Shown piece after piece: positions 7,147 through 46,137 of a DNA stretch of 64,000 nucleotides. The notes under the pieces are model-generated. The model was not told the origin of the DNA. It worked only from the letters and a program-made list of their open reading frames with translations, and did no database searches. Location: positions 1,263-65,262 of the forward strand of contig CAZEGV010000004.1 in NCBI GenBank assembly GCA_964511645.1. The letters run 5' to 3'. Positions within the stretch are counted from its first letter, which is position 1. The number at the start of each line of letters is the position of its first letter. Position numbers and translations under genes: made by a program. The stretch comes from an uncultured Cytophagales bacterium. Its GTDB lineage: Bacteria; Bacteroidota; Bacteroidia; Cytophagales; JAAEPT01.

Positions 7147-8400
7147 TTAACGTGTTCTAATCGCTTTCACAAATACCCCCTGACTATCTTTTGTGTCATA
7201 AATCTCAATAATCCCTTCAGCATCCAATCCTCTTGCGATAGAATAAGCTGGACCAAAGGCATAACCTTTTTTCGGTAAATCAGATTTTACAAAATGTTGT
7301 AAGTCAACAAAACCACTTGATTTGCTTTCTACTTCTTTTAACTCTTTCACCAAACCTTCTTTAGATATAATATTAAAAGCATCAAGTGACACTTCTTTTA
7401 CTGGCTGTGGTTTCTTCTCTACTACTTGTTGAACAGAAGCTGCTGGAGTTATTACTTCTTTAACTTCAGTTATTGGGTTTAGCTTTACACTAATTGGTTT
7501 AGCAACTGTTACTTTCTTTACTTGAGCCTGTGGCTTAATTTTAACAACTTTTACTTTTGCTGTTTTTTTCTTTACCGCTTTGGTTGTAGCTACTACTTTT
7601 TTAGGTTTAGCGGTAGGTGTACTTTTCTTCACTATACTTGTTGTGGGTTTTACTACTTGTTTTGAAATAACTGCAGTTACCTCTTTAGCTAATTTCTCAG
7701 CATCTTTTAAGTCCTTAGAAGAAGGGAATCCAGCATAATGCATGTCATTTAATTCCTTCCACTTATTCAATACTTTTTTATTTGGGAATGCTAGATCTAA
7801 TATTTTGGTATTATTTAATAAGTCTCTAAGCTCTTCCTTAGTGGTTAGTGAAATACTTAAGTCTATCAATCCGTTAGACGTTCTTTCTTTAACATGCCCA
7901 GAGATTATCTTTTTTGATTTTGATTCCCACCATTTTGATCCTTCTCCTTCTGCACAAAATTTACTTAGGCTATTTCTAATTGCAACTTCTAGTTGGTTGA
8001 CAAGTGGGGAGATTGATAATGAAACGTGGTCAGAAACTTCGTCTACTAATAATTGAATATTTGTAAATCCTAGTTTTTTACGGACATGAGTTAATAAATC
8101 ATGGCGAAATGAGTCTAGTTTGGCTAAACTTGTACTTGATAAACTAATAATAAAATGCTCGCTTCCTTTTGAAGTTTCTTGTATTTTTAAGTTAATCCCT
8201 AGCTTTTTATCTTGTATAACACTTTCTTTGGTGGTGTTTTTTAAAACTGCATTAGTCCATAATTTGTCTGAGTAGCACAATGCCATTGCTAATGATCTGA
8301 ATGTTTTAATTTCTGATTTCCCTGATGTGTCAGAGATCAATATTTCGTATTGGAATGTTTGGTTTTTGTTTATCATAGCTTTTTTTTTAGACTTGCTCAC
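7147..8400 (-). CDS. hypothetical protein with an unknown N-terminal region, a Lys/Val/Pro-rich histone-H1-like linker and a small C-terminal globular domain
   Basis: 417-aa ORF with a GTG start (alternative ATG at 8376). The low-complexity stretch is KPKKVVATTKAVKKKTAKVKVVKIKPQAQVKKVTVAKP. I recognise no family motif with confidence. Confidence 0.65.
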   Translation of the reverse strand: MSKSKKKAMINKNQTFQYEILISDTSGKSEIKTFRSLAMALCYSDKLWTNAVLKNTTKESVIQDKKLGINLKIQETSKGSEHFIISLSSTSLAKLDSFRHDLLTHVRKKLGFTNIQLLVDEVSDHVSLSISPLVNQLEVAIRNSLSKFCAEGEGSKWWESKSKKIISGHVKERTSNGLIDLSISLTTKEELRDLLNNTKILDLAFPNKKVLNKWKELNDMHYAGFPSSKDLKDAEKLAKEVTAVISKQVVKPTTSIVKKSTPTAKPKKVVATTKAVKKKTAKVKVVKIKPQAQVKKVTVAKPISVKLNPITEVKEVITPAASVQQVVEKKPQPVKEVSLDAFNIISKEGLVKELKEVESKSSGFVDLQHFVKSDLPKKGYAFGPAYSIARGLDAEGIIEIYDTKDSQGVFVKAIRTR

Positions 8401-8461
8401 TTGAACAGCTTTTCAAAATAAGTATAATATTTAATTTAACCAAGAAAAATAGGATAGAAAT

Positions 8462-8547
8462 GGCTTAGGGATTGACGTGGAAATCCTTCCCGATTTTTTT
8501 TCGGGAAGATTGGGAACAAAAAGCCCGACCGACAGGGAAGCCCCCAA
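8462..8547 (-). repeat. dispersed intergenic repeat, copy A
   Basis: Plus strand reads ggcttagggattgacgtggaaatccttcccgatttttttttcgggaagattgggaacaaaaagcccgaccgacagggaagccccc. This is the reverse complement of the C/D/E orientation. Confidence 0.8.
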
Positions 8548-8561
8548 TTTTCAAATCTAAA

Positions 8562-11030
8562 CTACAAAGTAACCAAGATAGCTGCTTTTATAGTTAAATT
8601 TTGTGCTTTGGGTAGGTCTGTATAACTCAGCCTGTGATAGATTTGTACACGTAAGAATTTAAAAATATTTTCTAATCCATAACCAATTTCAGCATAAGGC
8701 TTAGCTTCCAATGTGTTCAATTTCAAATTTCCAGATGCATCTAGCTTTTTATTGATTTCAGATAGCCCTCCCCAAACAATATTGGAGGTCATTACGGCAC
8801 GCCACTTAAGCTTTTTGATTAAAGGAATTCTATTCATAAAAAATCCATCAAATCGATGAACGTGAGTAAACTGAATATATTCATCTGAAGCAAATTCAAA
8901 AAAGTTCATTGTATTATTGGCATATACCGAATAGAAAGGGGTAGGGTTTCCTAAATGAACTTTGAGTAAATGTAAAGGTACGGGATTGAAAATTTTACCT
9001 CCTTTAATCCAAAATTTAGTTCTCCCGAATCCTCCTAAGCCTATTTTCTTAAACACAGTCAAGTCCAACCTGTGGTATTCTAAATCACTACCTAATACTC
9101 CGCTTGCTCCATAGGTATAGTCAAGGTCAAAAGTAGGCCATTTGGAACCTCCCAGACGCTTTCTATTGATTCCATTTACAGCATAAACTTCATTCTTGGC
9201 AAATCTTAAGCTTGTTACTATTTCGTTGGTTGTTAGGTTTGATTTGATTTCTGATTGGTTATTTGGGTTATGATAGGCGTAGTTAAATAAAGGGCTTTTT
9301 TCGTTATGTTTTAATTTTATTTTGGTAGAGAAATGCCTATTTAGCTGTCTGTAAATAGATACACTTTGCTCATTGTTCCACATTGCACCGCTCTGAGTCC
9401 CCCATTTTGTAAAGATATCAAAAAGCTCACTTTGTACTAAACCTGTAATGCCTAATAAGTCTATTTCATTTTTGGATGCAAATTGTAATTCTGTCCATGG
9501 TTTTCTGTGTACAATAATCTTAACTTTTGCTCCATACTTCCAAGCATTGTCTCCTGTTCCGTAAGCTGTATATCCTTGTAGTTGTATGTTGCTACTGAAT
9601 TCATTAAATGTTTTAAAACCTAATCTTAAGCGATGTTTTTCAATAGTATTATAGGCGTACAATCTACTGTATGTCCCTAACCATATTTTTTTGTTTAATA
9701 TTGGGTAACGTCCACCAAATACGGCATCTATGATGTCTAAATATGATTTCACAATTGGTGAATCACTTACTTCTTTTACTAATTCATTTGCACGAAGTTC
9801 ATCGGCAGTAAGGGAATCTGCTCTGTTTTCTTTCCAAAATTTTTCTGATTTATCTCTTCTGTCATCTGCCAAATCAAGACCATATTCAAAGTGTTTATCA
9901 GGAAACTCATCTATCAATTTAACATTTGAATAAGCGGTACGGGTTCTTATAAGTAAACCTGTCATGTTTTTACTCAGCTCCTTCACTCCTACTTCTAGGT
10001 AAGTGTCTTTAGGGAACCAAAAACTTTCTTCTGATTTTTTCCATTCCCTATTGATTGAGAGTTTGTCGATAAAATTAAGATTAGCCGTTTCCTGTAGCTT
10101 CATTTCTAACCTACGGATTGCATAATCACTATAACCGATATACATCTCACCAACAAAAGCTAAGTCTTGGGCTCTTTTGGGTCTAAATTTGATATAATAG
10201 ACGGAATCTCCTTGATATATTATACTTGTATCTAGTAGCATGTATTTATAATTAGATTTCCAAAAGGCCGATACTGGTGAGAGTAATTCTTTTCCAAATG
10301 CTGTAATCGTATTGTCGTACAAATTAAATTGCTGATATGATGCTCCTACAAATTGAGATACCAAACCACCGTCTTCAATCCCTAAACCACTTGCTTTGGT
10401 GGCTACTACGGTTTCTTTTTGAGTGTAAGGGTTGTTTTTAGCTGAAAATTTTGACACTGTTTCAAAGATGTAAATTGGTAACAAGTCATTTCCATCTTCA
10501 TCCTTTAGCAAGTCTAACTCTTGTACAGCCTCTCCTATTTTTTGTAAGATTTTTTTTTCTTTAAATTTTTCGGTGATATTATCTGCGTCAACTTCTATCC
10601 TACTGTAACTATCATATTTATAACCCGATGACTTACTATAATCATTTTGTTTTTTATATCTGTTAATCTCTCTTAATACATTAAAAGCAGGGTTCTCGGC
10701 AGCCACTAAAACTACTTTCTCTAATTCTACGGCATCTTCTCCTGTGTAAATGTCAATTATCTGAATAGACTCATTCGTTACGTAAATAGATTTAGGTTTT
10801 ATTCCAAAGGCAAGTACCCGCAAGCTATCATCTCCAGATGGCAATGAGATGCTGTACTTCCCATCTATATCAGTTTGGGTAGTTTTACTTGTTTTTACAG
10901 ATTTGATTGTAGCAAATGGCAAAGTAGATTCTCCATCTTGGGCATATACCACACCTGATACGTTCACCTGAGCCAAAGAAGCTAGAGATACGCAAAAAAT
11001 AGCTATAATTAATAATACTTGTTTTCTCAT
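8562..11030 (-). CDS. DUF5686-like protein with an N-terminal carboxypeptidase-regulatory-like domain (predicted outer-membrane associated)
   Basis: Signal peptide MRKQVLLIIAIFCVSLASLAQ, then a CarboxypepD_reg-like segment (VSGVVYAQDGESTLPFATIKS..TDIDGKYSISL). The ATG at 11030 overlaps the trmH TGA (ATGA). The ORF-track start at 11087 is probably too long. Confidence 0.65.
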   Translation of the reverse strand: MRKQVLLIIAIFCVSLASLAQVNVSGVVYAQDGESTLPFATIKSVKTSKTTQTDIDGKYSISLPSGDDSLRVLAFGIKPKSIYVTNESIQIIDIYTGEDAVELEKVVLVAAENPAFNVLREINRYKKQNDYSKSSGYKYDSYSRIEVDADNITEKFKEKKILQKIGEAVQELDLLKDEDGNDLLPIYIFETVSKFSAKNNPYTQKETVVATKASGLGIEDGGLVSQFVGASYQQFNLYDNTITAFGKELLSPVSAFWKSNYKYMLLDTSIIYQGDSVYYIKFRPKRAQDLAFVGEMYIGYSDYAIRRLEMKLQETANLNFIDKLSINREWKKSEESFWFPKDTYLEVGVKELSKNMTGLLIRTRTAYSNVKLIDEFPDKHFEYGLDLADDRRDKSEKFWKENRADSLTADELRANELVKEVSDSPIVKSYLDIIDAVFGGRYPILNKKIWLGTYSRLYAYNTIEKHRLRLGFKTFNEFSSNIQLQGYTAYGTGDNAWKYGAKVKIIVHRKPWTELQFASKNEIDLLGITGLVQSELFDIFTKWGTQSGAMWNNEQSVSIYRQLNRHFSTKIKLKHNEKSPLFNYAYHNPNNQSEIKSNLTTNEIVTSLRFAKNEVYAVNGINRKRLGGSKWPTFDLDYTYGASGVLGSDLEYHRLDLTVFKKIGLGGFGRTKFWIKGGKIFNPVPLHLLKVHLGNPTPFYSVYANNTMNFFEFASDEYIQFTHVHRFDGFFMNRIPLIKKLKWRAVMTSNIVWGGLSEINKKLDASGNLKLNTLEAKPYAEIGYGLENIFKFLRVQIYHRLSYTDLPKAQNLTIKAAILVTL

Positions 11031-25201: not shown

Positions 25202-26279
25202 ATGACAAAAGACCAACTAAAAAATCTCCAAAAAAGAGTAACCGCCTTAGGGCAATATCTTTGACTACGATCGCAAAAAAATAGACGTAGAAGAAGCAGA
25301 ACTCAAAACCACACAACCCGACTTTTGGAACAACTCCAAAAAAGCAGAAATAACCCTCAAAGAAATAAGAGGAATAAAAGTTTGGACAAACGGATACGAA
25401 GCCATACAAACAGCATTAGAAGACCTCGAAATACTTCACGAATTCCAAGAAATGGGAGAAATAGAAGCATTAGAAGTTGATAAAGCCTACCAAGACACCA
25501 TTACGCTTACCGAAGACCTAGAATTTAAAAGAATGCTAGGAGGAGAAGAAGACCAACTTAGTGCAATGCTTCAAATAAACCCAGGAGCAGGAGGAACAGA
25601 ATCTAACGACTGGGCATCAATCCTCATGAGAATGTACATCATGTGGGCAGAAAGTCAAGGATTCAAAGTACGGCAAGTCAACTACCAAGCAGGAGAAGTA
25701 GCAGGAATAAAATCTTGCACACTAGAAATAGACGGTGACTTTGCTTACGGTTATCTCAAATCCGAAAATGGTGTACATCGTTTAGTTCGTATCTCACCCT
25801 TCGACTCTGGCGGTCGTCGGCACACCTCATTTGCATCCGTATTTGTATACCCCGTTGTTGATAATACTATTAATATAGAAGTCAATCAAGCAGATGTAAA
25901 ATGGGATACTTTCCGATCTGGAGGAGCAGGAGGGCAAAACGTAAACAAAGTAGAAACAGCTGTAAGGTTACACTACAAAGACGATGAAATTGTAATAGAA
26001 TGCTCACAAGAACGGGCACAATTGCTTAATAAAGAGAAAGCACTCCAAATGCTTAAATCACAACTTTATCAAAAAGAAGTAGAAAAAAGAAATGCCAAAC
26101 GAGACGATGTAGAAGCCAACAAAAAAAATATAGAATTTGGCTCTCAGATTAGAAATTACGTCTTACACCCTTACAAGCTCGTCAAAGATGCCCGCACAGG
26201 GTATGAACGAAGCGATGCAAACAATGTATTAGATGGCGATATTAGCGACTTTATAAAATCATACTTAATGAGCCAATAA
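25202..26279 (+). CDS. prfB: peptide chain release factor 2, expressed through a programmed +1 frameshift (frame 0 is 25202-25261, then frame +1 is 25263-26279)
   Basis: Frame 0 reads MTKDQLKNLQKRVTALGQYL then TGA. After skipping T25262 the reading is DYDRKKIDVEEAELKTTQPDFWNN..., which joins the ORF-track fragment 25452-26279 in frame. The GGQ motif (SGGAGGQNVNK) and the RF2 SPF motif (RISPFDS) are present. Confidence 0.92.
25247..25265 (+). other. prfB +1 frameshift site with upstream SD-like GGG (TTA GGG CAA TAT CTT TGA C)
   Basis: The slippery CTT followed by an in-frame TGA C, with a G-rich element 6 nt upstream, matches the established RF2 autoregulatory site. Confidence 0.9.
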
Positions 26280-26290
26280 ATTAAAAATAA

Positions 26291-26385
26291 TTGGGGCATC
26301 CCCCTACGGGTCGGGCTTTCGCTACTCAATCTTTCCGATAAAAAAATCGGAAAAGATTTCAAACAGACCGCTCTATCCCTGATGC
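26291..26385 (+). repeat. dispersed intergenic repeat, copy C
   Basis: ggggcatcccc..ggtcgggctttcgctactcaatctttccgataaaaaaatcggaaaagatttc..atccctgatgc. It begins 11 nt after the prfB TAA. Confidence 0.8.
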
Positions 26386-26413
26386 GGTACAATGCACACA
26401 TAACAAACTAAAA

Positions 26414-27193
26414 ATGACAATATTACAAACAGCCGAACGAGTATCACACCAAGACCTATCCGATAACTTTGTTTACCAACGATCACTACTTGCCTACGTA
26501 GAAGCCGCCAAGCTAGTCAGCGGAAAAGTATTAGAGATAGGTACAGGAAGCGGATACGGGATAGACATTATCAGTCAAAACTGTGAAAAATTTGTAACTA
26601 TTGATAAATTTGTAAACGAACCACTACAAGCCCGTAAAGATTTACCAAAAAACATTGAGTTCAAACAAATCACAATCCCACCACTTACAGGTATAGAAAG
26701 CAATAGCTTTGATTTTGTTATTACATTTCAAGTAATTGAACATATACAAGATGACAACGCCTTTGTAAGCGAAATAAACCGTGTACTCAAAAAAGGAGGC
26801 AAGTTAATCGTGACCACACCCAACAAACCAATGTCCATAACCCGTAACCCTTGGCACATAAGAGAATACAGCATTGATGAATTACACACTATTTTGAAAA
26901 AAAAATTTACATCCGTAGAAAACAAAGGAGTAACAGGAAACCAAAAAATATTTGACTACTATAACAAAAACAAAGCCTCTGTACAAAAAATAACCCGTTT
27001 TGACATCTTTGATTTACAACATAAATTACCACGCCAAATCTTACAAATCCCTTACGACATCCTTAATCGAATAAACCGTAAAAAATTACTTAAAAATAAT
27101 TCAGGATTAGTTTCAGACATCAAAATGGAAGATTATAAAATCAAAGAAGTAGACAATACTTGCTTTGATTTATTTTATATCGCTACCAAATAA
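26414..27193 (+). CDS. class I SAM-dependent methyltransferase
   Basis: 259 aa. SAM-binding motif VLEIGTGSGYG and post-I/II motifs (FDFVITFQVIEH, LKKGGKLIVTTP). Confidence 0.75.
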   Translation: MTILQTAERVSHQDLSDNFVYQRSLLAYVEAAKLVSGKVLEIGTGSGYGIDIISQNCEKFVTIDKFVNEPLQARKDLPKNIEFKQITIPPLTGIESNSFDFVITFQVIEHIQDDNAFVSEINRVLKKGGKLIVTTPNKPMSITRNPWHIREYSIDELHTILKKKFTSVENKGVTGNQKIFDYYNKNKASVQKITRFDIFDLQHKLPRQILQIPYDILNRINRKKLLKNNSGLVSDIKMEDYKIKEVDNTCFDLFYIATK

Positions 27194-28557
27194 TGTCATT
27201 TCAAGACACTATCATCGCCCCTGCTACCGCACCTGGAATTGGTGCTATCGCTGTTATTCGTTTATCTGGCACAGAAGCTATAAACATTACCAAGCAAGTA
27301 TTCAGAGGGAAAGACTTAACACTTGTCAACTCTCATACCCTACATTTTGGTACAATTAGAGACGACGACAACAACATTCTTGACGAAGTGCTTGTCAGTG
27401 TATTCAAAGCACCGCACTCATTTACCAAAGAAAATATAATAGAGATTTCTACACACGGCTCTCCTTATATTGTCAAAAAAATCATACAATTACTAATCCA
27501 CAAAGGAGCAAGAACTGCCAAAGCAGGAGAATTTACCCAAAGAGCTTTTATCAACGGTCAGTTTGACCTTGCCCAAGCCGAAGCTGTAGCAGACCTCATC
27601 GCATCCGACTCAGAAATAGCACATCAAACAGCTATGAACCAAATGAGAGGAGGATTTTCTAAAAATATCAAACAACTTAGAGAGCAACTCATCCACTTTG
27701 CTTCAATGATTGAGCTAGAACTTGACTTTGGAGAAGAAGATGTAGAGTTTGCCGATAGAGAAGACCTCAAGCAACTCATCCACAAATTACTAAAGGTTAT
27801 CATCCCATTAGTGCAATCATTTGACCTTGGTAATGTCATAAAAGAAGGGATTCCCACCGTAATTGCAGGGAAGCCAAATGTAGGAAAATCCACGCTACTC
27901 AACGCCTTGCTTAATGAAGAAAAAGCCATCGTGTCAGATGTACCGGGTACTACCAGAGATTATATAGAAGATGAAATTGTAATAGAAGGTATCAAATTTA
28001 GGTTTGTAGATACCGCTGGTCTTCGTGACACTGATGATAAAGTAGAAGCCATTGGCGTAGCACGTAGTAAAGAGCAATTAAACAAAGCATCTCTTATTCT
28101 TTACCTTTTTGACGCTGAAGAGCTAGGGGATAATAACTCCTTGCAAAAGGAATTAGATGAGATTAAAACCTTAAAGATTCCGTATCTATTTATTGCTAAT
28201 AAGCTCGATACTATTAAAGAAAAAGAAATAACAAAATACACAGAAGATTTTGTGTTTATCTCGGCAAATATTGGTACTAATCTTAATAAATTAAAAGAGT
28301 TGATTCTTCAAAAAGTAGGAGCTAATAATTTTAAATCTGGAGATACAATTATTACTAACATCCGCCATTACGAAGGTTTATCACACACCCAGCAAAGCTT
28401 AGAGAAAGTACTTAAAGCCCTTAACAATAATATTACAGGCGATTTTCTTGCAATGGACATCCGCCAAGCCCTACATCACCTAGGTGAGCTTACAGGCACA
28501 ATCACAACAGATGACCTTCTGGATAATATCTTTAGTAAGTTTTGTATTGGAAAGTAG
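27193..28557 (+). CDS. mnmE: tRNA uridine-5-carboxymethylaminomethyl modification GTPase
   Basis: 454 aa. The N-terminus DTIIAPATAPGIGAIAVIRLSG, the G-domain GKPNVGKSTLLNAL..DTAGLR and the C-terminal CIGK are all present. TAATG overlap with the upstream methyltransferase. Confidence 0.95.
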   Translation: MSFQDTIIAPATAPGIGAIAVIRLSGTEAINITKQVFRGKDLTLVNSHTLHFGTIRDDDNNILDEVLVSVFKAPHSFTKENIIEISTHGSPYIVKKIIQLLIHKGARTAKAGEFTQRAFINGQFDLAQAEAVADLIASDSEIAHQTAMNQMRGGFSKNIKQLREQLIHFASMIELELDFGEEDVEFADREDLKQLIHKLLKVIIPLVQSFDLGNVIKEGIPTVIAGKPNVGKSTLLNALLNEEKAIVSDVPGTTRDYIEDEIVIEGIKFRFVDTAGLRDTDDKVEAIGVARSKEQLNKASLILYLFDAEELGDNNSLQKELDEIKTLKIPYLFIANKLDTIKEKEITKYTEDFVFISANIGTNLNKLKELILQKVGANNFKSGDTIITNIRHYEGLSHTQQSLEKVLKALNNNITGDFLAMDIRQALHHLGELTGTITTDDLLDNIFSKFCIGK

Positions 28558-29385
28558 TTATCCAAAATTAATTTCTGGGGGAGGTATCTTTTCTAAAAAT
28601 TCATTTACCTTTTTAATTAACGTCAAAATTATTCTTTTTTTCAAAGGCTTAATATTTTCATTATTATCCTCTAAATAACGAACAAACCCATTCAGACAAC
28701 AACATTCTTCAGAATGATACGGTTGTATCTCTTCGTACCTTCTACAGAAAAACCATTTTAGTTCATTAATCGCTTCACCTTTCATGTCTAATGTTCTTTT
28801 ACCAAATTTTTCGGAATCAATTTCTTTAAAAATATTTGTATTATAAAAGCTTGTAAAACTATTTATGGTTAATTTCTCTAACCTTTCTTCAAGGTTACGA
28901 ACATTTGAATTGTTTATTTCTTCAAATAATAGCTTCAAAAAAGAACCAGAGTATAAATTCGATTTCTCTTCTATTTTTTTCAATAGCACTCTTCTTATAT
29001 CTCCTTCTTTTTGATTCAATACTTTCCCTACCTGAAAGCTACAATAAAAGGATGATATATTATGGGAGTCTAGGTCTCCATCTTCCAATAATCTACTGAT
29101 ATTCTTTTCGGCTAAAGCTATAATGTCTTTTTTATCATAATCAATTAATTTTTCACTGTTCCATAATAGTAACATTTCACTAAAAGTAATCACACAGTGC
29201 ATCTCTTGAACTTTTTCATTCTTTAATGACTCGAAAACATCCTTATATAGTTGTTCAAACACCTCTTCTTCCAAAAACTCCCAACGCCCTATCTTCTCAA
29301 TCATTTTAACGCTTCCCTTGGTGAAAAACAATAAGGTCGAGAGATATCCATTTAAAAGTGCTATATCTATAAAACCCTCTTGCAT
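28558..29385 (-). CDS. hypothetical helical protein, partner of the KAP-family NTPase (or the detached C-terminal half of one)
   Basis: 275-aa ORF, 5 nt downstream of the KAP ORF and in a different frame. It is rich in Glu/Lys/Leu and has a Cys cluster (HSEECCCLNGF). I recognise no motif. Confidence 0.6.
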   Translation of the reverse strand: MQEGFIDIALLNGYLSTLLFFTKGSVKMIEKIGRWEFLEEEVFEQLYKDVFESLKNEKVQEMHCVITFSEMLLLWNSEKLIDYDKKDIIALAEKNISRLLEDGDLDSHNISSFYCSFQVGKVLNQKEGDIRRVLLKKIEEKSNLYSGSFLKLLFEEINNSNVRNLEERLEKLTINSFTSFYNTNIFKEIDSEKFGKRTLDMKGEAINELKWFFCRRYEEIQPYHSEECCCLNGFVRYLEDNNENIKPLKKRIILTLIKKVNEFLEKIPPPEINFG

Positions 29386-29390
29386 ATAAC

Positions 29391-30440
29391 TTATATAAGG
29401 ATAGAAGTTTTACAGAAATGTAAGCTATGCAGTATGTTATATTTATTAAGAAGCACATTATATTGTTTTTCATAACCCGTACTTATTATTCTTTCTTCCT
29501 TACTCAGACTGCCTACCGCTTGAAATAATTCAACATTAGTACCTCCCTTCATCTCCAGATATATAATTAAGAAATAAATTAATAAGCCTTCAATAAATTT
29601 TTTATAATTATCTGAGCCCTTGTATTCATCGCTAACAAACCCTTCAAATCGATTAAAGTCAAAAAGAAATTGTTTCAAAACACGAAGATTGTTATATTTT
29701 GCTGTTTGAAAAACATTAACTACAATCTCTTTAAATGGCTCATAATCAAAAACTTTGACATCTTTCCCAATCTCTTTAATGAAACCGTCTAATACTGTAC
29801 CAACATTGTTTTGAACCTTAAAGGTTTGTCCTATTAATTTCTCCTTTACTTTTCTATATACTTGATATCCATCATCACTGCCTCCTATTTTTATTTGGTC
29901 AGCAACAAGTATTACTTTACAACCATAATGCTCTACAAAGTCATTAATGTAGCCGAACATTGTTTCAGTGTTAATTTTACATCGTTCTAAATCATCAAAC
30001 ACTAAAATGCGTCTACCTCTCACCTTATCGGTATTCTTAAGTTCAAATATTTTAAACACATCTAAGGCATAAGATAATGTGCCATCATTTTTATTGTCAG
30101 CCGCATTAAAATCAATATCAAATTTTAATGATGATTTCAAAAGCCCCTTCCCTAATTCTTTAATGAAATTAGCACTTTTAGAGTGTAGAATTGGGTAGAT
30201 TTGAGACTTGATTTTCTCTGTAACCCTTCCCATATTCTCGATTCCATTCAGGCTTATATAAATTGGCTTCATTACAACAGAATCTCCACACTCTTCCACT
30301 TCCTTCCCCCAGCTGTCTAAAACTTTTTTAATAAAGTATGTTTTCCCACTTCCCCACTCCCCTGTTAACATCACAGCATAGCCGGGGGTCTTTAATCTTA
30401 TATAATAGTCTAAATAATCAGTAACGTGTTTATTATTCAT
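29391..30440 (-). CDS. KAP-family P-loop NTPase (soluble, short form)
   Basis: 349 aa. Walker A is GEWGSGKT (aa 27-34) and the KAP-type Walker B is ILVFDDLERC (about aa 145-154). There is no hydrophobic insert between them. Confidence 0.8.
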   Translation of the reverse strand: MNNKHVTDYLDYYIRLKTPGYAVMLTGEWGSGKTYFIKKVLDSWGKEVEECGDSVVMKPIYISLNGIENMGRVTEKIKSQIYPILHSKSANFIKELGKGLLKSSLKFDIDFNAADNKNDGTLSYALDVFKIFELKNTDKVRGRRILVFDDLERCKINTETMFGYINDFVEHYGCKVILVADQIKIGGSDDGYQVYRKVKEKLIGQTFKVQNNVGTVLDGFIKEIGKDVKVFDYEPFKEIVVNVFQTAKYNNLRVLKQFLFDFNRFEGFVSDEYKGSDNYKKFIEGLLIYFLIIYLEMKGGTNVELFQAVGSLSKEERIISTGYEKQYNVLLNKYNILHSLHFCKTSILI

Positions 30441-30783
30441 AATTCTTTATTTTCAACGAAAACATTTCTGTTATTATAAGAACAAAAAAACAACTTTACT
30501 AAAAAAAGAGTTGTGTTTTTTTTTCATTGCCTTTGTAGTACGAAAATTGTAATATTTTAAAAAGTAAAAGAATACACAAAAACAATTCTCTTAACAAAAT
30601 AGCGCTCGAATTCCTGAGTGGACGGATGCACATTCGCGAAAATCATTTGTTGTTGTTTGTACTTCAACAAGTTCAGTATGACGAAATCAGAAAACAATAC
30701 TCTCGATTAAAAATCGAGATAGACTCCCGCCAAACAGAGAGGAAGAGCCCTAAAATCTACCAATACAGCAAGTAGAAACAACA

Positions 30784-32691
30784 TTATTCTTTAACCGTCA
30801 AATCATCCCCCTCTCTAAGCACCAAGCCTTGGTCAATCAGCAAACGCAACTCCTCTATTGCTTCTTTTCCCAAAACTCGCTTAATTCCTTGTAGATTTTC
30901 TCCTAGACGAACTACTTCTAGTACTTTTAACTTTAAACCACTTGGTTTGGTGTCTCTATTCATACACTGGTCACAAATACCACAGTCAGCCAATTGATAA
31001 TCTCCAAAATATTCTCCAAAAAATACTGAACGACATTTATCAGATAAATTAAGGTATTTCCTGAACGAAACTAAACGATGATTTGCCTGCTTTTTAAGCC
31101 ATTTAAGCTTTTCTCTATCTATTCTTATGACTTGGGCATCTGCTCTAGCTTGCAAAAAGACAATCCCAGACCCTTCCAGCTTGGGTATATATTTTATCGC
31201 ACCATTTTCCACCAATTTCCTAAGAGTCATAATTGTTTTGGCATGAGACCAACCCAGTTGATTGGCTAGGTTATAATCGTCTACCTTTACAAAGTGTGTC
31301 AAAATCTCCCCCCCATAAAACCTCATTAAGACTTTAAAAAAAGCTTCATAACTTTCATTAGACACTTGCAATTTATAAATAGCTGTATTGTCTATCACTA
31401 CTTTTAGCTTTGAACTATCTTCACTAGAGTTTTGGTAACTGAGGTAATTATTACGCTCCAAAATCTTTAAAGCATGATAAGCCTCCATAGTAGGAAGTTT
31501 GTATTTTTCACAAAAAACCTCTATCCCGAAAGGAAGTTTTTCCTGTGGATGGCTGCCTACTGCTAGGTTATAATAATTACCTATAGCATGATAAACCCTT
31601 TTTATAAAATCAACATCAGGATATTGTTTATCAATCAAAGCCGACTGTGTGACTAAATCTTGGTCGTCATAAATCAATAATGCGAAAGCCTTTTGCTCAT
31701 CCCTCCCAGCACGACCTGCCTCTTGGTAATAATTCTCAAGGCTATCTCTCACTCCCCAATGCACAACCAAACGCACATTAGCTTTGTCAATACCCATACC
31801 AAATGCACTTGTACAAACGATAACGGGCACTTCTCCGCTTAACCATTGTTGCTGATGCTTGTTGCGTTGCTCAATGCTCAACCCTGCATGGTACTCTTGT
31901 GCTCTAATGCCTTTCTTTACCAAAAACTGAGTGATATTGACTGTCTCTTTACGAGTGTTGACATAAACGATAGAGCTGTACTGACCAAATCGCTTAAATA
32001 CATCTGATAACTTAGTGTATTTGTCAGCTTCTTTCCGAACTGAAAAAGAGAGATTTTCTCTTATAAATGGTGTTTTAAAAATTTGAGTTTTTGTAAACCC
32101 TAATACAATTTGTATATCTTCTACCACCTTGGGGGTAGCTGTTGCCGTTAGTGCTATGCAAGGTTTGTTTGGACAAAACTCTTTTCTAAAATCTACAACA
32201 CGAAGGTATGATGGTCTAAAATCATGCCCCCACATCGAGATACAATGTGCTTCATCCACAACAAGAATTGAGATAGAAACATACTTGATTCTATCCAAAA
32301 AAGATTTGCTACTTAAACGTTCTGGAGAAACGTATAATATTTTATTTAATCCCGAAGATACCCTAGTCCAAATCGACTCTTGCTCATCATAAGACTGACC
32401 TGCATACAGGCAACTAGCATCTATACCTTTCTCTTTAAGGTTCAGTACTTGATCTTTCATTAAAGCCACTAAAGGAGATACCACAAGCGTAATACCCTCT
32501 AGCATCAACGCAGGTAGCTGAAAGCACACTGACTTACCTGCACCAGTAGGCATCAAAGTAAGCACTTCTCCTCCATCCAGTACCGCTTGTATCACTTCCG
32601 CCTGCATAGGACGAAAATCATCATAAACCCAATATTTCTTCAAAACCTCATGCACAAGCGAAATATACAAAACCATTTGCCTTGAAATCAA
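30784..32691 (-). CDS. recQ: ATP-dependent DNA helicase RecQ
   Basis: 635 aa. FRPMQAEVI, the Walker A TGAGKS, the DEAH box (VVDEAHCISMWGHDFRPSY), a zinc-binding Cys cluster and an HRDC-like tail are present. Confidence 0.9.
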   Translation of the reverse strand: MISRQMVLYISLVHEVLKKYWVYDDFRPMQAEVIQAVLDGGEVLTLMPTGAGKSVCFQLPALMLEGITLVVSPLVALMKDQVLNLKEKGIDASCLYAGQSYDEQESIWTRVSSGLNKILYVSPERLSSKSFLDRIKYVSISILVVDEAHCISMWGHDFRPSYLRVVDFRKEFCPNKPCIALTATATPKVVEDIQIVLGFTKTQIFKTPFIRENLSFSVRKEADKYTKLSDVFKRFGQYSSIVYVNTRKETVNITQFLVKKGIRAQEYHAGLSIEQRNKHQQQWLSGEVPVIVCTSAFGMGIDKANVRLVVHWGVRDSLENYYQEAGRAGRDEQKAFALLIYDDQDLVTQSALIDKQYPDVDFIKRVYHAIGNYYNLAVGSHPQEKLPFGIEVFCEKYKLPTMEAYHALKILERNNYLSYQNSSEDSSKLKVVIDNTAIYKLQVSNESYEAFFKVLMRFYGGEILTHFVKVDDYNLANQLGWSHAKTIMTLRKLVENGAIKYIPKLEGSGIVFLQARADAQVIRIDREKLKWLKKQANHRLVSFRKYLNLSDKCRSVFFGEYFGDYQLADCGICDQCMNRDTKPSGLKLKVLEVVRLGENLQGIKRVLGKEAIEELRLLIDQGLVLREGDDLTVKE

Positions 32692-43704: not shown

Positions 43705-44893
43705 TCTACTCATCACCTTTTTATTACTAATTTCTAGTCAATTACTTAGCCAGCATTATGAAACTGAACTAAACGGGACAACACAAGGTTGGGCAAAGCT
43801 CAATATCCCAGAACACTTGTACGAGAAATCGACTAGTTCAGCGTTAAAAGATTTTAGAATTTATGGTTTAAGCAATCAAGAAGACACGATAGAAGTACCT
43901 TATATCATACAAAGCCATACTGATTTTCATTTCAGCGAAAGTGATCCTTTTAAAATAATCAACCAAGCTTCGATAAATGGTGAGTTTCTATATACGATTG
44001 TGCAAGAAATACCTAAAATCATTAACACAATACAGCTAGACATTTCTCAGAACAATTTTGATTGGAAAGTAGATATAGAAGGAAGCCAAAACCAAAAGGA
44101 ATGGTACAAGATTACTCAAAATTATCGAATCATGTCTATCGAAAATGAACTGACTGATTATAAATTCACTACTATTCGAATCCCATCTTCTCAGTACAAG
44201 TACTTCAGACTTAGAGTCAAAAGTAAAACGAAACCTACAATCACTGGTGCCACATCTCAAAAAGATTCTACTATTTTTGGTAAATACATTCAGTACACTA
44301 TACAGAACATAAAAAACTCACAAGACAAAAAGCAAAAACAAAGTGTTTATGAAATCACACTTCAGCATAAAGTTCCTTTATCGAGGTTGTCTTTTTTGAT
44401 TAATAATGAAAAAGATTATTACCGCCCATTTAGGTTATCTTACAGTAAAGACAGCGTCAGAAAGTACTATAACACCATTACTAGTGGTGTATTGCATTCA
44501 CTCAATTCAAGTCAATATGAAACAAATAATACGAGTGTCAAATACTTAAAACTCATCATTCAAAACTTTAATAACCCCCCTCTTGACATTGACTCAATTA
44601 TACTAGAGGGTGTAAGTGAAGAGATAGTGGCTCTGTTCCCAGACAATGGCACAAAATACTGGGCAGAATACGGAGATAAGAACAAAACTAGACCTCGCTA
44701 TGATATACAACACTTTGACAACACCATCCCTAAAGTAATACCAACACTTAATTTTGGTATAGAAACATATAAAAAGCCTATTTCATCACCAGAACCAAAA
44801 CCATTATTTAATCAAACATGGCTTTGGTCTATTATGCTTGTCATTATCGGAATACTCGCTTGGTTTTCGATAAAAATGCTAAAAAGCAGTTAG
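43676..44893 (+). CDS. DUF3999-like secreted protein with a C-terminal TM anchor
   Basis: 405 aa. It overlaps the DUF2339 gene (alternative GTG start at 43694 gives MKNNLLITFLLLISSQLLSQ). C-terminal TM helix WLWSIMLVIIGILAWFSI. The DUF2339/DUF3999 pairing is recalled from other genomes. Confidence 0.5.
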   Translation: MLNISIVKNNLLITFLLLISSQLLSQHYETELNGTTQGWAKLNIPEHLYEKSTSSALKDFRIYGLSNQEDTIEVPYIIQSHTDFHFSESDPFKIINQASINGEFLYTIVQEIPKIINTIQLDISQNNFDWKVDIEGSQNQKEWYKITQNYRIMSIENELTDYKFTTIRIPSSQYKYFRLRVKSKTKPTITGATSQKDSTIFGKYIQYTIQNIKNSQDKKQKQSVYEITLQHKVPLSRLSFLINNEKDYYRPFRLSYSKDSVRKYYNTITSGVLHSLNSSQYETNNTSVKYLKLIIQNFNNPPLDIDSIILEGVSEEIVALFPDNGTKYWAEYGDKNKTRPRYDIQHFDNTIPKVIPTLNFGIETYKKPISSPEPKPLFNQTWLWSIMLVIIGILAWFSIKMLKSS

Positions 44894-44917
44894 AACACAG
44901 GCAATAAACTAATCAAG

Positions 44918-45640
44918 ATGAAAGAAAAGCCTAGACTTTCTAGATTAACTGCTATCCTAACCCAGTTACAGTCAAAACAAATATTGACAGCACGAGAAAT
45001 TGCTGAAAAACATAATGTAAGTATTCGAACGATATATCGCGATATTCGAACCCTTGAAAATTCAGGGATTCCAATCATTACGGAAGAAGGCAAAGGATAT
45101 TCTTTAATGGATAGTTTTAATCTTCCGCCAGTAATGTTTACTGAAAAAGAAGCAAATGCTTTGATTACTGCGGAACAACTTATATTAAAAAATAAAGACA
45201 GATCTTTCACTATAGAATATCAAAATGCAGTTTCTAAAATAAAATCAATTTTACGCCATTCACAAAAAGAAAAAATTGAACTCTTATCTGAAAGAATATA
45301 TTTCAGAAATAACGCAGAAAATCAGAAAACAAGTGATTATTTAATGACCATTCAATCTGCTATTTCAGATTTTAAGCTTATTGAAATTGAATATCAATCT
45401 TTACACGGAGAAAACACTAAACGAACCATTGAACCTTTCGCTTTATACAGCACTCAAGAAAATTGGCTTTTAATCGCTGTATGTAAATTAAGAAATAATT
45501 TTAGGGTTTTTAGATTAGATCATATTCACAAATTGATTGTTCAAAGCCACCATTTTGAATCTCAAAAAATAACACTTCAAGAATATTTTGAAATTTGTAG
45601 AGAAAAACACCTAACAACCCCTGACATACCTTTGTCATAA
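44918..45640 (+). CDS. HTH plus WYL domain transcriptional regulator (YafY-like)
   Basis: 240 aa. The N-terminal DeoR-type HTH is RLSRLTAILTQLQSKQILTAREIAEKHNVSIRTIYRDIRTLENSGIPI. A WYL-like core (TIEPFALYSTQENWLLIAVC) is present. Confidence 0.8.
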   Translation: MKEKPRLSRLTAILTQLQSKQILTAREIAEKHNVSIRTIYRDIRTLENSGIPIITEEGKGYSLMDSFNLPPVMFTEKEANALITAEQLILKNKDRSFTIEYQNAVSKIKSILRHSQKEKIELLSERIYFRNNAENQKTSDYLMTIQSAISDFKLIEIEYQSLHGENTKRTIEPFALYSTQENWLLIAVCKLRNNFRVFRLDHIHKLIVQSHHFESQKITLQEYFEICREKHLTTPDIPLS

Positions 45641-45678: not shown

Positions 45679-46137
45679 ATGGACAAAGTAACTGTTAAAG
45701 CATTTGAAGTAATCGGTATTTCAATAAGAACTACCAACGAAAACGAACAAGCAGCAAAAGACATTGGAGAATTATGGAATAAATTTATGTCGGAAGGAAT
45801 TATTGAAAAAATTCCTAATAAAGTTGATAACACTATTTATTCAATCTACACTGAATATGAAAGTGATTATACAAAACCATATACAACAGTTTTGGGTTGT
45901 AAAGTTGAGCACCTAAATGAAATACCCAACGGAATGGTTGGTAAATCTTTTAAAGAAGGGAAATATATTAACTTTTCTACTAAAGGAGACTTAACAAAAG
46001 GATTAATTATTAATAAATGGAAAGAAATATGGAAAATGGATTTAGACCGAGTTTATTCTGCAGATTTTGAAGTATTTGGAGAAAAAGCACAAAACCCAAA
46101 TGATGCAGAAATTGATATTTTAATTGCTATAAAGTAA
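45679..46137 (+). CDS. GyrI-like / AraC effector-binding domain protein
   Basis: 152 aa. FEVIGISIRTTNENEQAAKDIGELWNKF and ..DFEVFGEKAQNPNDAEIDILIAIK follow the GyrI-like small-molecule-binding fold pattern. Confidence 0.7.
   Translation: MDKVTVKAFEVIGISIRTTNENEQAAKDIGELWNKFMSEGIIEKIPNKVDNTIYSIYTEYESDYTKPYTTVLGCKVEHLNEIPNGMVGKSFKEGKYINFSTKGDLTKGLIINKWKEIWKMDLDRVYSADFEVFGEKAQNPNDAEIDILIAIK

Follow-up and report, generated by a model that had tools for sequence, protein, structure and literature searches.

Two adjacent reading frames on the minus strand separate mnmE from recQ in the genome of an uncultured Cytophagales bacterium, and they raise a simple question: do they form a two-gene conflict or defence module, as the initial annotation proposed, or are they the two parts of one broken gene? 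The window, by which we mean the whole 64,000-nucleotide stretch of DNA that was analysed, comes from a metagenome assembly (contig k141_603269). We conclude, with a probability of roughly 0.85, that positions 28558-30440 hold one frameshifted gene of the PDC-S49 family and not two genes.

Organization of the Locus and Its Host Genome

The upstream reading frame, ORF1 (29391..30440, minus strand), encodes a 349-aa N-terminal fragment, in which a helical region comes after the KAP NTPase domain, and ends at a premature TAA (29391-29393, minus strand). Five nucleotides from this stop and in another frame, the ATG at 29383-29385 (minus strand) opens ORF2 (28558..29385, minus strand), which encodes 275 aa counted from this first ATG and, in our reading, represents the all-α domain of the same protein. 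With one base restored, the interval 28558..30440 (minus strand) becomes a gene of 627 codons, which profile matches assign to the PDC-S49 family. The convergent neighbour is mnmE (27193..28557, plus strand; Pfam TrmE_N, MnmE_helical, and MMR_HSR1 on the called gene), whose TAG (28555-28557) adjoins the TAA of ORF2 (28558-28560) with zero intergenic bases. Upstream, on the same strand as the KAP gene, lies a recQ-type helicase gene (30784..32691, minus strand; Pfam DEAD, Helicase_C, and RecQ_Zn_bind), separated from it by a spacer of 343 nt (30441..30783, minus strand).

Our inspection reproduced the initial annotation in its coordinates and lengths for both ORFs, in the 5-nt gap and difference of frame between them, in the abutting stop codons of mnmE and ORF2, and in the length of the upstream spacer. 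The description of that spacer as hairpin-rich was borne out in part: it amounts to one good hairpin, which resembles a terminator and lies shortly beyond the end of recQ (30701-30719, minus strand; an 8-pair stem, then a T-rich tail), and a weaker one that overlaps it. An Rfam search of the spacer matched no family and the TAnnTTTG motif, when looked for, was not found there; the promoter of the KAP gene is presumably located in this segment. The host had been placed among the Flavobacteriia, a placement that does not hold: no species representative has an mnmE more than 70% identical to the local one, and the top matches are MAGs of Bacteroidia and Cytophagales (for example, Roseivirgaceae, Fulvivirga, and Marivirga).

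The GC content of the local gene is 30.5%, compared to ~38% in the flanking genes, which ranks it in the lowest 2.4% of same-sized windows. Its neighbours at the mnmE-recQ locus are housekeeping genes, and low GC is the one feature that points to acquisition; no convincing flanking direct repeats were found as insertion scars. On this compositional basis, the copy now lying between mnmE and recQ was probably acquired horizontally. In the 80 closest genomes available (mnmE 58%-70% identical), prfB, the methyltransferase, recQ, the acyltransferase, the TPR protein, and the KAP gene are all absent within 8 kb of mnmE. Because the mnmE-recQ junction is not conserved at the available phylogenetic distance, a comparison of synteny is uninformative.

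A KAP NTPase Domain without Transmembrane Segments

ORF1 matches the Pfam family KAP_NTPase (PF07693) over residues 10-265 with a score of 60.8 bits against a cut-off of 20, and gives only weak, sub-threshold matches to NACHT and other P-loop families. The Walker A motif GEWGSGKT (aa 27-34; 30339..30362, minus strand) and the Walker B/KAP signature ILVFDDLERC (aa 145-154; 29979..30008, minus strand) can be read from the sequence at the residues originally given for them. Across 109 sequences, G27, W29, G30, G32, and K33 of the former and D149, D150, E152, and R153 of the latter are invariant. ORF1 as a whole retains 63 of the 65 family columns that are conserved at ≥80%, and all catalytic residues are among them.

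No transmembrane segment was detected in ORF1, where 19-residue Kyte-Doolittle means peak at 0.54 between the Walker motifs and at 1.42 over the whole protein. The AlphaFold2 (AF2) model has a low-confidence, hydrophilic, disordered loop between the motifs at residues 101-124. The Pfam match and the hydropathy scan therefore agree with the earlier description of a KAP-type NTPase that lacks a transmembrane insert, a trait that turns out to be common to the whole PDC-S49 family. With the KAP family (PF07693; Kidins220/ARMS, PifA) the local protein shares the above-gathering Pfam match, a Walker A motif, and an hhhhDDxxR-type Walker B motif, but it differs in having no transmembrane helices either between the Walker motifs or at its N-terminus; helices inserted within the NTPase domain are reportedly typical of classical KAP members, a generalization attributed to Aravind et al. 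2004 and also summarized in PMC12632615. As for PifA itself, which mediates T7 exclusion by the F plasmid, the match to its PADLOC model is negligible (E 0.057, 10 bits) and is limited to the P-loop.

Both Reading Frames Match One Single-Gene Profile

The initial annotation could match the pair to no named system. A PADLOC search, in contrast, identified a catalogued defence candidate, PDC-S49 ("phage defence candidate, single-gene 49"; models PDLC05029, PDLC05030, and PDLC05031). ORF1 matches positions 1-349 of the 629-position model PDLC05030 (E 2e-113), and ORF2 matches positions 360-626 of the same model (E 1e-25), colinear with the ORF1 match; as encoded, the two fragments cover ~55% and ~42% of the model, respectively. 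The repaired 627-aa ORF spans positions 1-626 of the 629 with an E-value of 2.9e-142. Members of PDC-S49 consist of one polypeptide of ~600-660 aa, whereas the local gene as encoded yields 349 + 275 aa.

The family itself is built from single chains. More than 100 homologues are encoded as one protein each, 590-660 aa in length, nearly all of them 610-660 aa among the matches listed (n = 120), and the closest full-length homologues among these matches cover 90%-99% of the repaired protein. In a 14-sequence alignment, ORF2 picks up where ORF1 ends. Relatives on viral contigs consist of one full-length ORF each in ~75 of 80 cases, as do all eight of the chromosomal copies examined. A profile of the C-terminal domain alone, which scores ORF2 at 264 bits, retrieved 1,481 clusters. 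Among the best 150, lengths of 590-730 aa with the domain at ~340-630 predominate, and the domain is thus fused to the NTPase in these. The short proteins that carry the domain show a continuous spread of lengths, as is typical of contig-end fragments, and the two that we inspected were an in-frame-stop fragment and a remnant.

Because the model matches are colinear, the homologues are single chains, and one base restores the frame, we regard ORF2 as the normal C-terminal half of the same protein, and the proposed pairing of an NTPase with a small partner falls away. The repaired protein shares its length class, domain order, and solitary status with the PDC-S49 family. It differs from other members in being split by a frameshift and in its marked divergence: the closest non-identical match listed in a protein search is ≤36% identical.

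Position and Age of the Frameshift

Three-frame translation confines the frameshift to a 22-nt interval (29391..29412, minus strand) whose limits are set by the terminal TAA of ORF1 on one side and by a TAA of the downstream frame on the other. The gene has lost one base within this interval relative to the reading frame of the family, a loss that shifts the frame, ends translation after residue 349, and leaves the C-terminal domain in an ORF of its own, 275 codons long. Each of the 43 distinct one-base insertions possible in the interval restores a 627-aa ORF, with a score of 547-551 bits against an HMM trained on the homologues alone; since these scores differ by ≤4 bits, the repairs place the indel in the interval and not at an exact site. 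The sequence of the interval includes an A4 tract and a stretch of TATATA, and inspection by eye found in it neither a slippery heptamer (X XXY YYZ in the ORF1 frame) nor a long homopolymer.

ORF2 has no in-frame stop codon, compared to 26 expected at random. As 6.4% of its possible substitutions would create one, the neutral divergence accumulated since the break should be below ~5.7%. This bears on the poor conservation of the C-terminal half, which keeps 5 of 11 strongly conserved columns; among the six lost residues are the two Trp of the motif DWEKLW and the single His of the motif LHIxGIL. We considered decay after the frameshift as the cause and rejected it, because so much neutral change would have brought stop codons into ORF2.

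Other members of the family are also broken. One relative (L116) is one indel apart from an intact sequence (L109) to which it is 91.6% identical, another (L166) is broken at another site, and a third (L173) by an in-frame stop; the breaks in L116 and L173 map to model positions ~372 and ~340. In the AF2 model, the local break coincides with the beginning of helix 347-355, a confidently modelled and ordered part of the chain (pLDDT 88-95), and not with a flexible linker.

The 349-aa and 275-aa products are recorded in the protein collection under four sources (NCBI, JGI/IMG, ENA, and Logan). The readable contigs from ENA (MEGAHIT-style) and Logan match the window at 100% identity over the locus, and both assemblies probably derive from the same reads as the window; every copy of the frameshifted allele traces to one sample. 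An intact allele was found neither among 5.8 billion protein clusters nor in the metagenome contigs scanned. The protein search returned no sequence between 36% and 100% identity, and neither the same nor an intact allele came out of two scans of metagenomes, which used protein patterns in one case and, in the other, an exact DNA pattern across the junction that allowed a variable gap.

Alternative Readings of the Split

If the frameshift is real, the local copy is likely to be a recently inactivated accessory gene, and the lack of a recoding signal makes a recent pseudogene the most likely state. The reading with which we began, a short KAP NTPase beside an unrelated small partner protein, draws on the presence of two ORFs that gene callers annotate as two genes and on the lack of a Pfam or NCBIfam match for ORF2 alone, but the homology of ORF2 to residues ~350-630 of a single-chain family (E 1e-25; 264 bits) and the lack of a conserved neighbouring gene in any family member examined render it scarcely credible. 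More can be said for a functional split, in which the 349-aa NTPase and a re-initiated 275-aa helical domain would come together in trans and remain active. The restart ATG follows the stop at a distance of 5 nt, a geometry that fits translational coupling; ORF2 is fully open; the N-terminal half keeps its 63 of 65 conserved columns and every catalytic residue; and L116 and L173 are broken near the same region. Yet an open ORF2 is equally expected from a frameshift that is merely recent, the arrangement is not recurrent among the single ORFs that make up ~75 of the 80 viral-contig and all eight chromosomal copies, and the lesions in the broken copies are of different types and at different places (an indel, an in-frame stop, another site). 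The break within an ordered segment and not in a flexible linker, and the resemblance of short C-terminal-domain proteins to contig-end fragments also count against a functional split, which we consider unlikely.

An error in sequencing or assembly, in which the true gene is whole and the apparent loss of a base reflects a faulty consensus or a minor variant of the metagenome population, is slightly less probable again. The sequence does come from a metagenome assembly of one sample, the interval does contain the A4 run and the TATATA stretch, and ORF2 is free of decay; however, identical 349-aa and 275-aa products stand under all four sources, the readable ENA and Logan contigs agree fully with the window, and the clusters and contigs scanned held no intact allele. 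Short homopolymers, moreover, are not error-prone in short-read data. Programmed recoding, in which a -1 ribosomal frameshift or transcriptional slippage would yield the full-length protein and the 349-aa product would be a regulated short isoform, is less probable still. The shift needed is indeed -1, the two frames overlap over 22 nt, and the prfB gene in the window carries a true programmed frameshift, which indicates that this host does use programmed frameshifting; but the interval offers no X XXY YYZ heptamer when read in frame with ORF1, its longest candidate for polymerase slippage is the A4 run, and homologues read through in one frame with no shift at the corresponding position. The preferred reading remains a single PDC-S49 gene, broken by a recent loss of one base.

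The C-Terminal Domain and Predicted Fold

The ~280-aa C-terminal domain is predicted to be all-α: the AF2 model of ORF2 (pLDDT 88.8) has 12 helices. A PDB search with this domain gave no match (best E 0.086). The HSEECCCLNGF cluster singled out in the initial annotation is present, although only its third Cys corresponds to a Cys of most aligned homologues; a metal site was considered and rejected, two of the three Cys being absent from all homologues in the 14-sequence alignment.

For the repaired protein, modelled with a pLDDT of 87.6, Foldseek against the PDB ranked RdrA of RADAR first (E 1.3e-4, probability 1.0), followed by ORC/Cdc6/DnaA and Apaf-1; these structural matches are globally weak (TM ~0.27). 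When solved structures were searched with a profile, the matches were limited to designed helical repeats and P-loop noise, and no solved structure showed sequence similarity to the protein. No nuclease, TIR, protease, or other catalytic module was detectable in the protein, nor were TPR or WD repeats by sequence.

PDC-S49 Genes in Mobile Contexts

Members of the PDC-S49 family occur in 46 of 5,426 complete E. coli genomes, where copies lie between gpA and the portal gene gpQ of P2-like prophages; an intact one from this site encodes WP_000552034.1 (NZ_CM132257.1, 1176163-1178055). This gpA-gpQ hotspot of P2 carries old, tin, and many defence systems (PMC9122126). Elsewhere, one copy is flanked by integrases, another by IS30-type transposases and resistance genes, and another by PRTase-CE, HNH, and NADAR genes; of the eight chromosomal contexts examined, four or five show the gene flanked by housekeeping genes alone. 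No conserved neighbouring gene accompanies any family member examined, and the family is always solitary.

In sum, PDC-S49 looks like a family of mobile conflict or defence genes, and it is the genomic context that suggests the defence role. A literature search turned up no experiment that challenged PDC-S49 with phages; among other PDC candidates put to such a test, only a subset conferred protection (PMC12881386). The initial proposal of a conflict or defence module thus stays plausible as regards the mobility of the family and its presence in the P2 hotspot and in islands, and fails as regards a module of two genes.

Discussion

KAP NTPases fused to C-terminal regions of no known function protect E. 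faecalis from phages in a Walker B-dependent manner (PMC12632615), as described in the RADS study of EF_KAP and three metagenomic relatives (PMC12632615; also PLoS Biol 2026, PMC13552941). The local gene resembles these EF_KAP-type fusions in layout, one chain in which ~300 aa without a known domain come after a KAP NTPase, but EF_KAP has two N-terminal transmembrane helices where the local protein has none, and the local copy is frameshifted. RdrA (PDB 8hr8, 8hra, and 8fnw) likewise combines a P-loop/AAA-like core with helical domains that follow it. RdrA, however, is ~830-850 residues long and forms heptameric rings, and the comparison gives a global TM-score of 0.27 and 12% identity, with no similarity at the sequence level; no PADLOC RADAR model matched the locus, and no RdrB-type adenosine deaminase gene lies nearby. 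STAND/Avs-type sensors and ORC/Cdc6/DnaA also place a helical, repeat-like C-terminal region after an NTPase, consistent with the weak fold matches to Apaf-1, ORC, and Cdc6. The local protein differs from STAND/Avs in having no recognizable N-terminal effector (nuclease, TIR, or SIR2).

By analogy with these folds (RdrA, ORC/Cdc6, and Apaf-1-type NTPases) and with the published KAP fusions, we infer a mechanism for intact members of the family. The C-terminal domain possibly acts as a sensor: this helical domain would recognize an infection cue, recognition would license NTP-dependent oligomerization of the NTPase, and the oligomeric assembly might then block phage replication.

Under the single-gene reading, the apparent two-gene defence module is an artefact of reading one frameshifted gene as two. 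Each fragment covers about half of the PADLOC profile, so a coverage-filtered run of PADLOC or a comparable program could miss or mis-call such a locus. Should the functional split prove true after all, the C-terminal domain would be a module in its own right, detachable from the NTPase, and the locus would offer a natural experiment for dissecting the PDC-S49 family. That family is widespread and mobile, is found in the P2 defence hotspot of E. coli, and combines a soluble KAP NTPase with a C-terminal domain of no recognized fold; an intact member, such as E. coli WP_000552034.1, is a far better experimental subject than the broken local copy.

Two Reading Frames Are Halves of a Single PDC-S49 Gene

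The initial annotation described two genes between mnmE and recQ, and both ORFs are present as placed: ORF1 (29391-30440, minus strand; 349 aa) and ORF2 (28558-29385, minus strand; 275 aa). The Walker A (GEWGSGKT, ORF1 aa 27-34; 30339-30362, minus strand) and Walker B (ILVFDDLERC, aa 145-154; 29979-30008, minus strand) motifs could be read straight off the sequence. ORF1 ends with a TAA at 29391-29393; the ATG of ORF2 (29383-29385) follows 5 nt past this stop in the -1 frame, and the ORF2 stop TAA (28558-28560, minus strand) adjoins the mnmE stop TAG (28555-28557), confirming the abutment originally noted. The reported lack of a transmembrane insert was also borne out: in a 19-residue hydropathy scan, the top mean was 0.54 for the inter-Walker stretch and 1.42 for the protein as a whole, and no membrane segment was predicted in either.

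The proposed arrangement of an NTPase with an unknown small partner, matching no named system, did not survive comparison with the PADLOC library. ORF1 was recognized as Pfam KAP_NTPase (60.8 bits; cut-off 20), and ORF2 had no Pfam match. ORF1 aligned to positions 1-349 (E = 2e-113) and ORF2 to positions 360-626 (E = 1e-25) of PDLC05030, a 629-position model of PADLOC's phage defence candidate, single-gene 49 (PDC-S49), and both sister models gave an identical colinear pattern. Three-frame translation revealed that the two frames are jointly open only over a short overlap; a one-base insertion within it gives a 627-aa ORF (the repaired protein) that matches PDLC05030 positions 1-626 with E = 2.9e-142. 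Searching 5.8 billion protein clusters recovered 405 relatives, with lengths of 610-660 aa for nearly all of the top 120. Among the matches listed, the closest full-length relatives, which are 28-36% identical to the repaired protein, span 90-99% of its length, and the sole identical match is a 349-aa fragment from the same contig. ORF2 picks up exactly at the end of ORF1 in a multiple alignment. A profile of the C-terminal domain, searched against 1.84 billion representatives, returned 1,481 clusters; proteins in the top 150 are mostly 590-730 aa long, with the domain joined to the NTPase at approximately residues 340-630.

Together, the colinear PADLOC matches, the alignment and the fused C-terminal-domain clusters indicate that ORF2 is the C-terminal half of an ordinary single-chain KAP NTPase. 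The "two-gene cassette" is a single frameshifted PDC-S49 gene, a divergent and broken member of an already catalogued candidate defence family.

Nature and Age of the Frameshift

Passing from the ORF1 frame to that of ORF2 requires a -1 shift, equivalent to losing a single base, and the lesion is confined to 29391-29412, between a TAA in the downstream frame and ORF1's terminal TAA. This interval admits 43 distinct single-base insertions, each of which produces the 627-aa ORF; against a homologue-only HMM the repaired versions score 547-551 bits, a spread so narrow that the exact site cannot be separated. Programmed frameshifting or transcriptional slippage at the junction is unlikely because the interval, which contains just one A4 run and a TATATA stretch, has neither an X XXY YYZ heptamer nor a long homopolymer. 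A textbook programmed +1 site, in contrast to the KAP lesion, occurs elsewhere in the window in prfB (release factor 2; 25202-26279, plus strand): translation starts at the ATG at 25202, meets CTT TGA C at codons 20-21 (25259-25265), and in the +1 frame runs unbroken into a 275-aa ORF ending at 26279, which explains why only a truncated RF2 appears in the ORF list. In the spacer that separates prfB from the methyltransferase gene, Rfam's Flavo-1 sRNA gave a match below threshold (26305-26387, minus strand; 23.9 bits versus a gathering threshold of 42, E = 0.15) that is probably due to chance.

The same two protein products are on record in NCBI, JGI/IMG, ENA and Logan sources. Both an ENA contig (129,760 bp, with a MEGAHIT-style name) and a Logan contig from read set SRR8439058 match the window over the whole locus at 100% identity, which rules out an artefact of a single assembler. 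All assemblies of the locus probably derive from one read set, so the frameshift may be a population-level polymorphism; no intact allele or second sample with the locus was found among 5.8 billion protein clusters or the metagenome contigs scanned.

ORF2 has no stops in 275 codons, where ~26 would be expected from composition; the two alternative frames have 32 and 34. Given that 6.4% of possible single-base substitutions in ORF2 would create a stop, its open frame limits neutral divergence since the break to less than ~5.7% (95% bound; median 1.3%). Therefore, either the break is recent or ORF2 is still selected. The N-terminal half retains 63 of the 65 family columns conserved at ≥80%. The C-terminal half retains just 5 of 11: the two DWEKLW-motif Trp residues and the LHIxGIL His are gone, placing it near the bottom of the 109 sequences in conservation. 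Decay after the frameshift was considered as the source of this loss and rejected, because that much neutral change would have brought stops, and ORF2 has none; divergence of the C-terminal half must instead predate the frameshift, and it reflects a divergent lineage.

A functional split, in which selection keeps the two-polypeptide form, appears quite improbable. The protein is encoded by a single ORF in ~75 of 80 viral-contig copies and in all eight chromosomal copies examined, and the other broken copies are few and dissimilar in lesion: L116 (7950-9894) differs by a 1-nt indel from L109 (intact, 91.6% identical), L166 (6697-8462) is broken at another site, L173 (2-1009) has an in-frame stop, and L172 is a truncated remnant. 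Moreover, the break in the window copy falls where helix 347-355 begins, a part of the structure modelled with confidence (pLDDT 88-95), rather than in a flexible linker. Two of the three copies L116, L166 and L173 break near the boundary between the NTPase and C-terminal domains.

Predicted Structure and Possible Mechanism

An AlphaFold2 model of the repaired protein, built with 108 homologues (pLDDT 87.6, pTM 0.73), comprises a P-loop α/β core followed by a long all-α region. A disordered hydrophilic loop is predicted at residues 101-124, the position at which classical KAP proteins instead have transmembrane helices. The top PDB match in Foldseek was RdrA (E = 1.3e-4), the ATPase that forms rings in the RADAR defence system, followed by ORC/Cdc6/DnaA initiators and Apaf-1, all with global TM-scores of just ~0.2-0.3; a profile search found no sequence match to solved structures. 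Modelled alone, ORF2 forms a bundle or solenoid of 12 helices (pLDDT 88.8) with no significant PDB match (best E = 0.086, to generic 14-3-3 and designed-repeat proteins). No catalytic effector domain was detectable in the repaired protein.

KAP-fusion proteins whose defence activity has been validated by experiment depend on an intact Walker B motif and do not act through abortive infection (PMC12632615). By analogy with these proteins and with STAND and RdrA-type NTPases, we infer that the helical domain of an intact PDC-S49 protein would sense an infection cue, that NTP-dependent oligomerisation would follow, and that the resulting assembly would interfere with phage replication.

Composition and Surroundings of the Window Copy

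The KAP gene has a GC content of 30.5% (GC3 ~27.6%), and the flanking mnmE and recQ genes ~38% (GC3 ~32%). The cassette lies two standard deviations under the window mean, in the lowest 2.4% of same-sized windows. This low GC is consistent with horizontal acquisition, and the Lys/Glu/Asn/Ile-rich composition of the protein also contributes to it. No flanking repeats, integrase or tRNA were found at the locus. Only one other stretch of the window is as GC-poor (44150-45500; minimum 28.9%). Lying downstream of a DUF2339 membrane protein gene, it covers the end of a DUF3999 gene together with genes for a WYL/HTH_11 regulator (44918-45640) and a Cass2/GyrI-like protein (45679-46137), and may likewise have been acquired.

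The 343-nt spacer upstream of the KAP gene had been called hairpin-rich: it contains one terminator-like hairpin (30701-30719, minus strand), positioned to terminate recQ, and essentially no more. At the other end, the protein tail …EKIPPPEINFG (28558-28590, minus strand) overruns the family alignment by ~8 residues to reach the mnmE stop, so the original 3′ end of the gene, plus any terminator, may have been lost or overwritten. The host had been taken for a flavobacterium, which it is not; the best mnmE matches are Bacteroidia and Cytophagales MAGs, with ≤70% identity to any species representative. None of the 80 nearest genomes carried any of the window genes checked (prfB, methyltransferase, recQ, acyltransferase, TPR protein and KAP gene) within 8 kb of mnmE.

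Genomic Contexts of the PDC-S49 Family

The settings of PDC-S49 relatives point to a mobile conflict gene. Relatives are common on IMG/VR contigs (134 confirmed), and P2-type markers occurred in 39 of the 80 loci fetched for analysis. In one group, the gene is flanked by replication gene A and portal gene Q in a P2-like prophage, whose other genes include CI/CII, Dam, terminase, scaffold and capsid; PADLOC identifies these proteins as PDC-S49 with E-values down to 5e-161. The same gene, annotated "P-loop NTPase fold protein", is present in 46 of 5,426 complete E. coli genomes. RefSeq annotation bears out the gene order: replication endonuclease, PDC-S49 gene, portal. The gpA-gpQ interval is a hotspot for anti-phage systems, where P2 carries old and tin; no KAP or P-loop system is mentioned among those tested by Rousset et al. 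(PMC9122126).

In E. coli P2-like prophages, the gene after the hotspot PDC-S49 gene encodes a 223-aa hypothetical protein (WP_000885505.1) that matched nothing in Pfam or PADLOC (both genes: L107, 7950-11089; E. coli NZ_CM132257.1, 1176163-1179251). L106-L108 share this ORF with 100% conservation, and L109 and L112-L115 lack it. It may be an accessory gene or cargo of the hotspot in its own right. A second P2-related group from IMG/VR (L135-L170) carries the PDC-S49 gene (~8001-9750) directly downstream of a cI-like repressor, at the extreme end of the viral contig, a site resembling the cI-integrase hotspot described in K139-like Vibrionaceae phages (Rousset et al., PMC9122126).

Other intact members lie between two tyrosine integrases beside a prophage-like block, or in a Riemerella island where IS30-type transposases accompany resistance genes. 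Further neighbours include PRTase-CE, HNH and NADAR genes and, elsewhere, a DUF3800 gene; like the window copy, some members stand alone amid housekeeping genes. No neighbour gene is conserved across the contexts examined; thus, PDC-S49 is a true single-gene unit. A literature search found no publication naming PDC-S49, and other PDC candidates have given mixed results when tested (PMC12881386). The window locus is a poor exemplar for testing the family. The family itself is worth experiment, given its soluble KAP NTPase, its C-terminal domain without a recognised fold and its site in the P2 hotspot.
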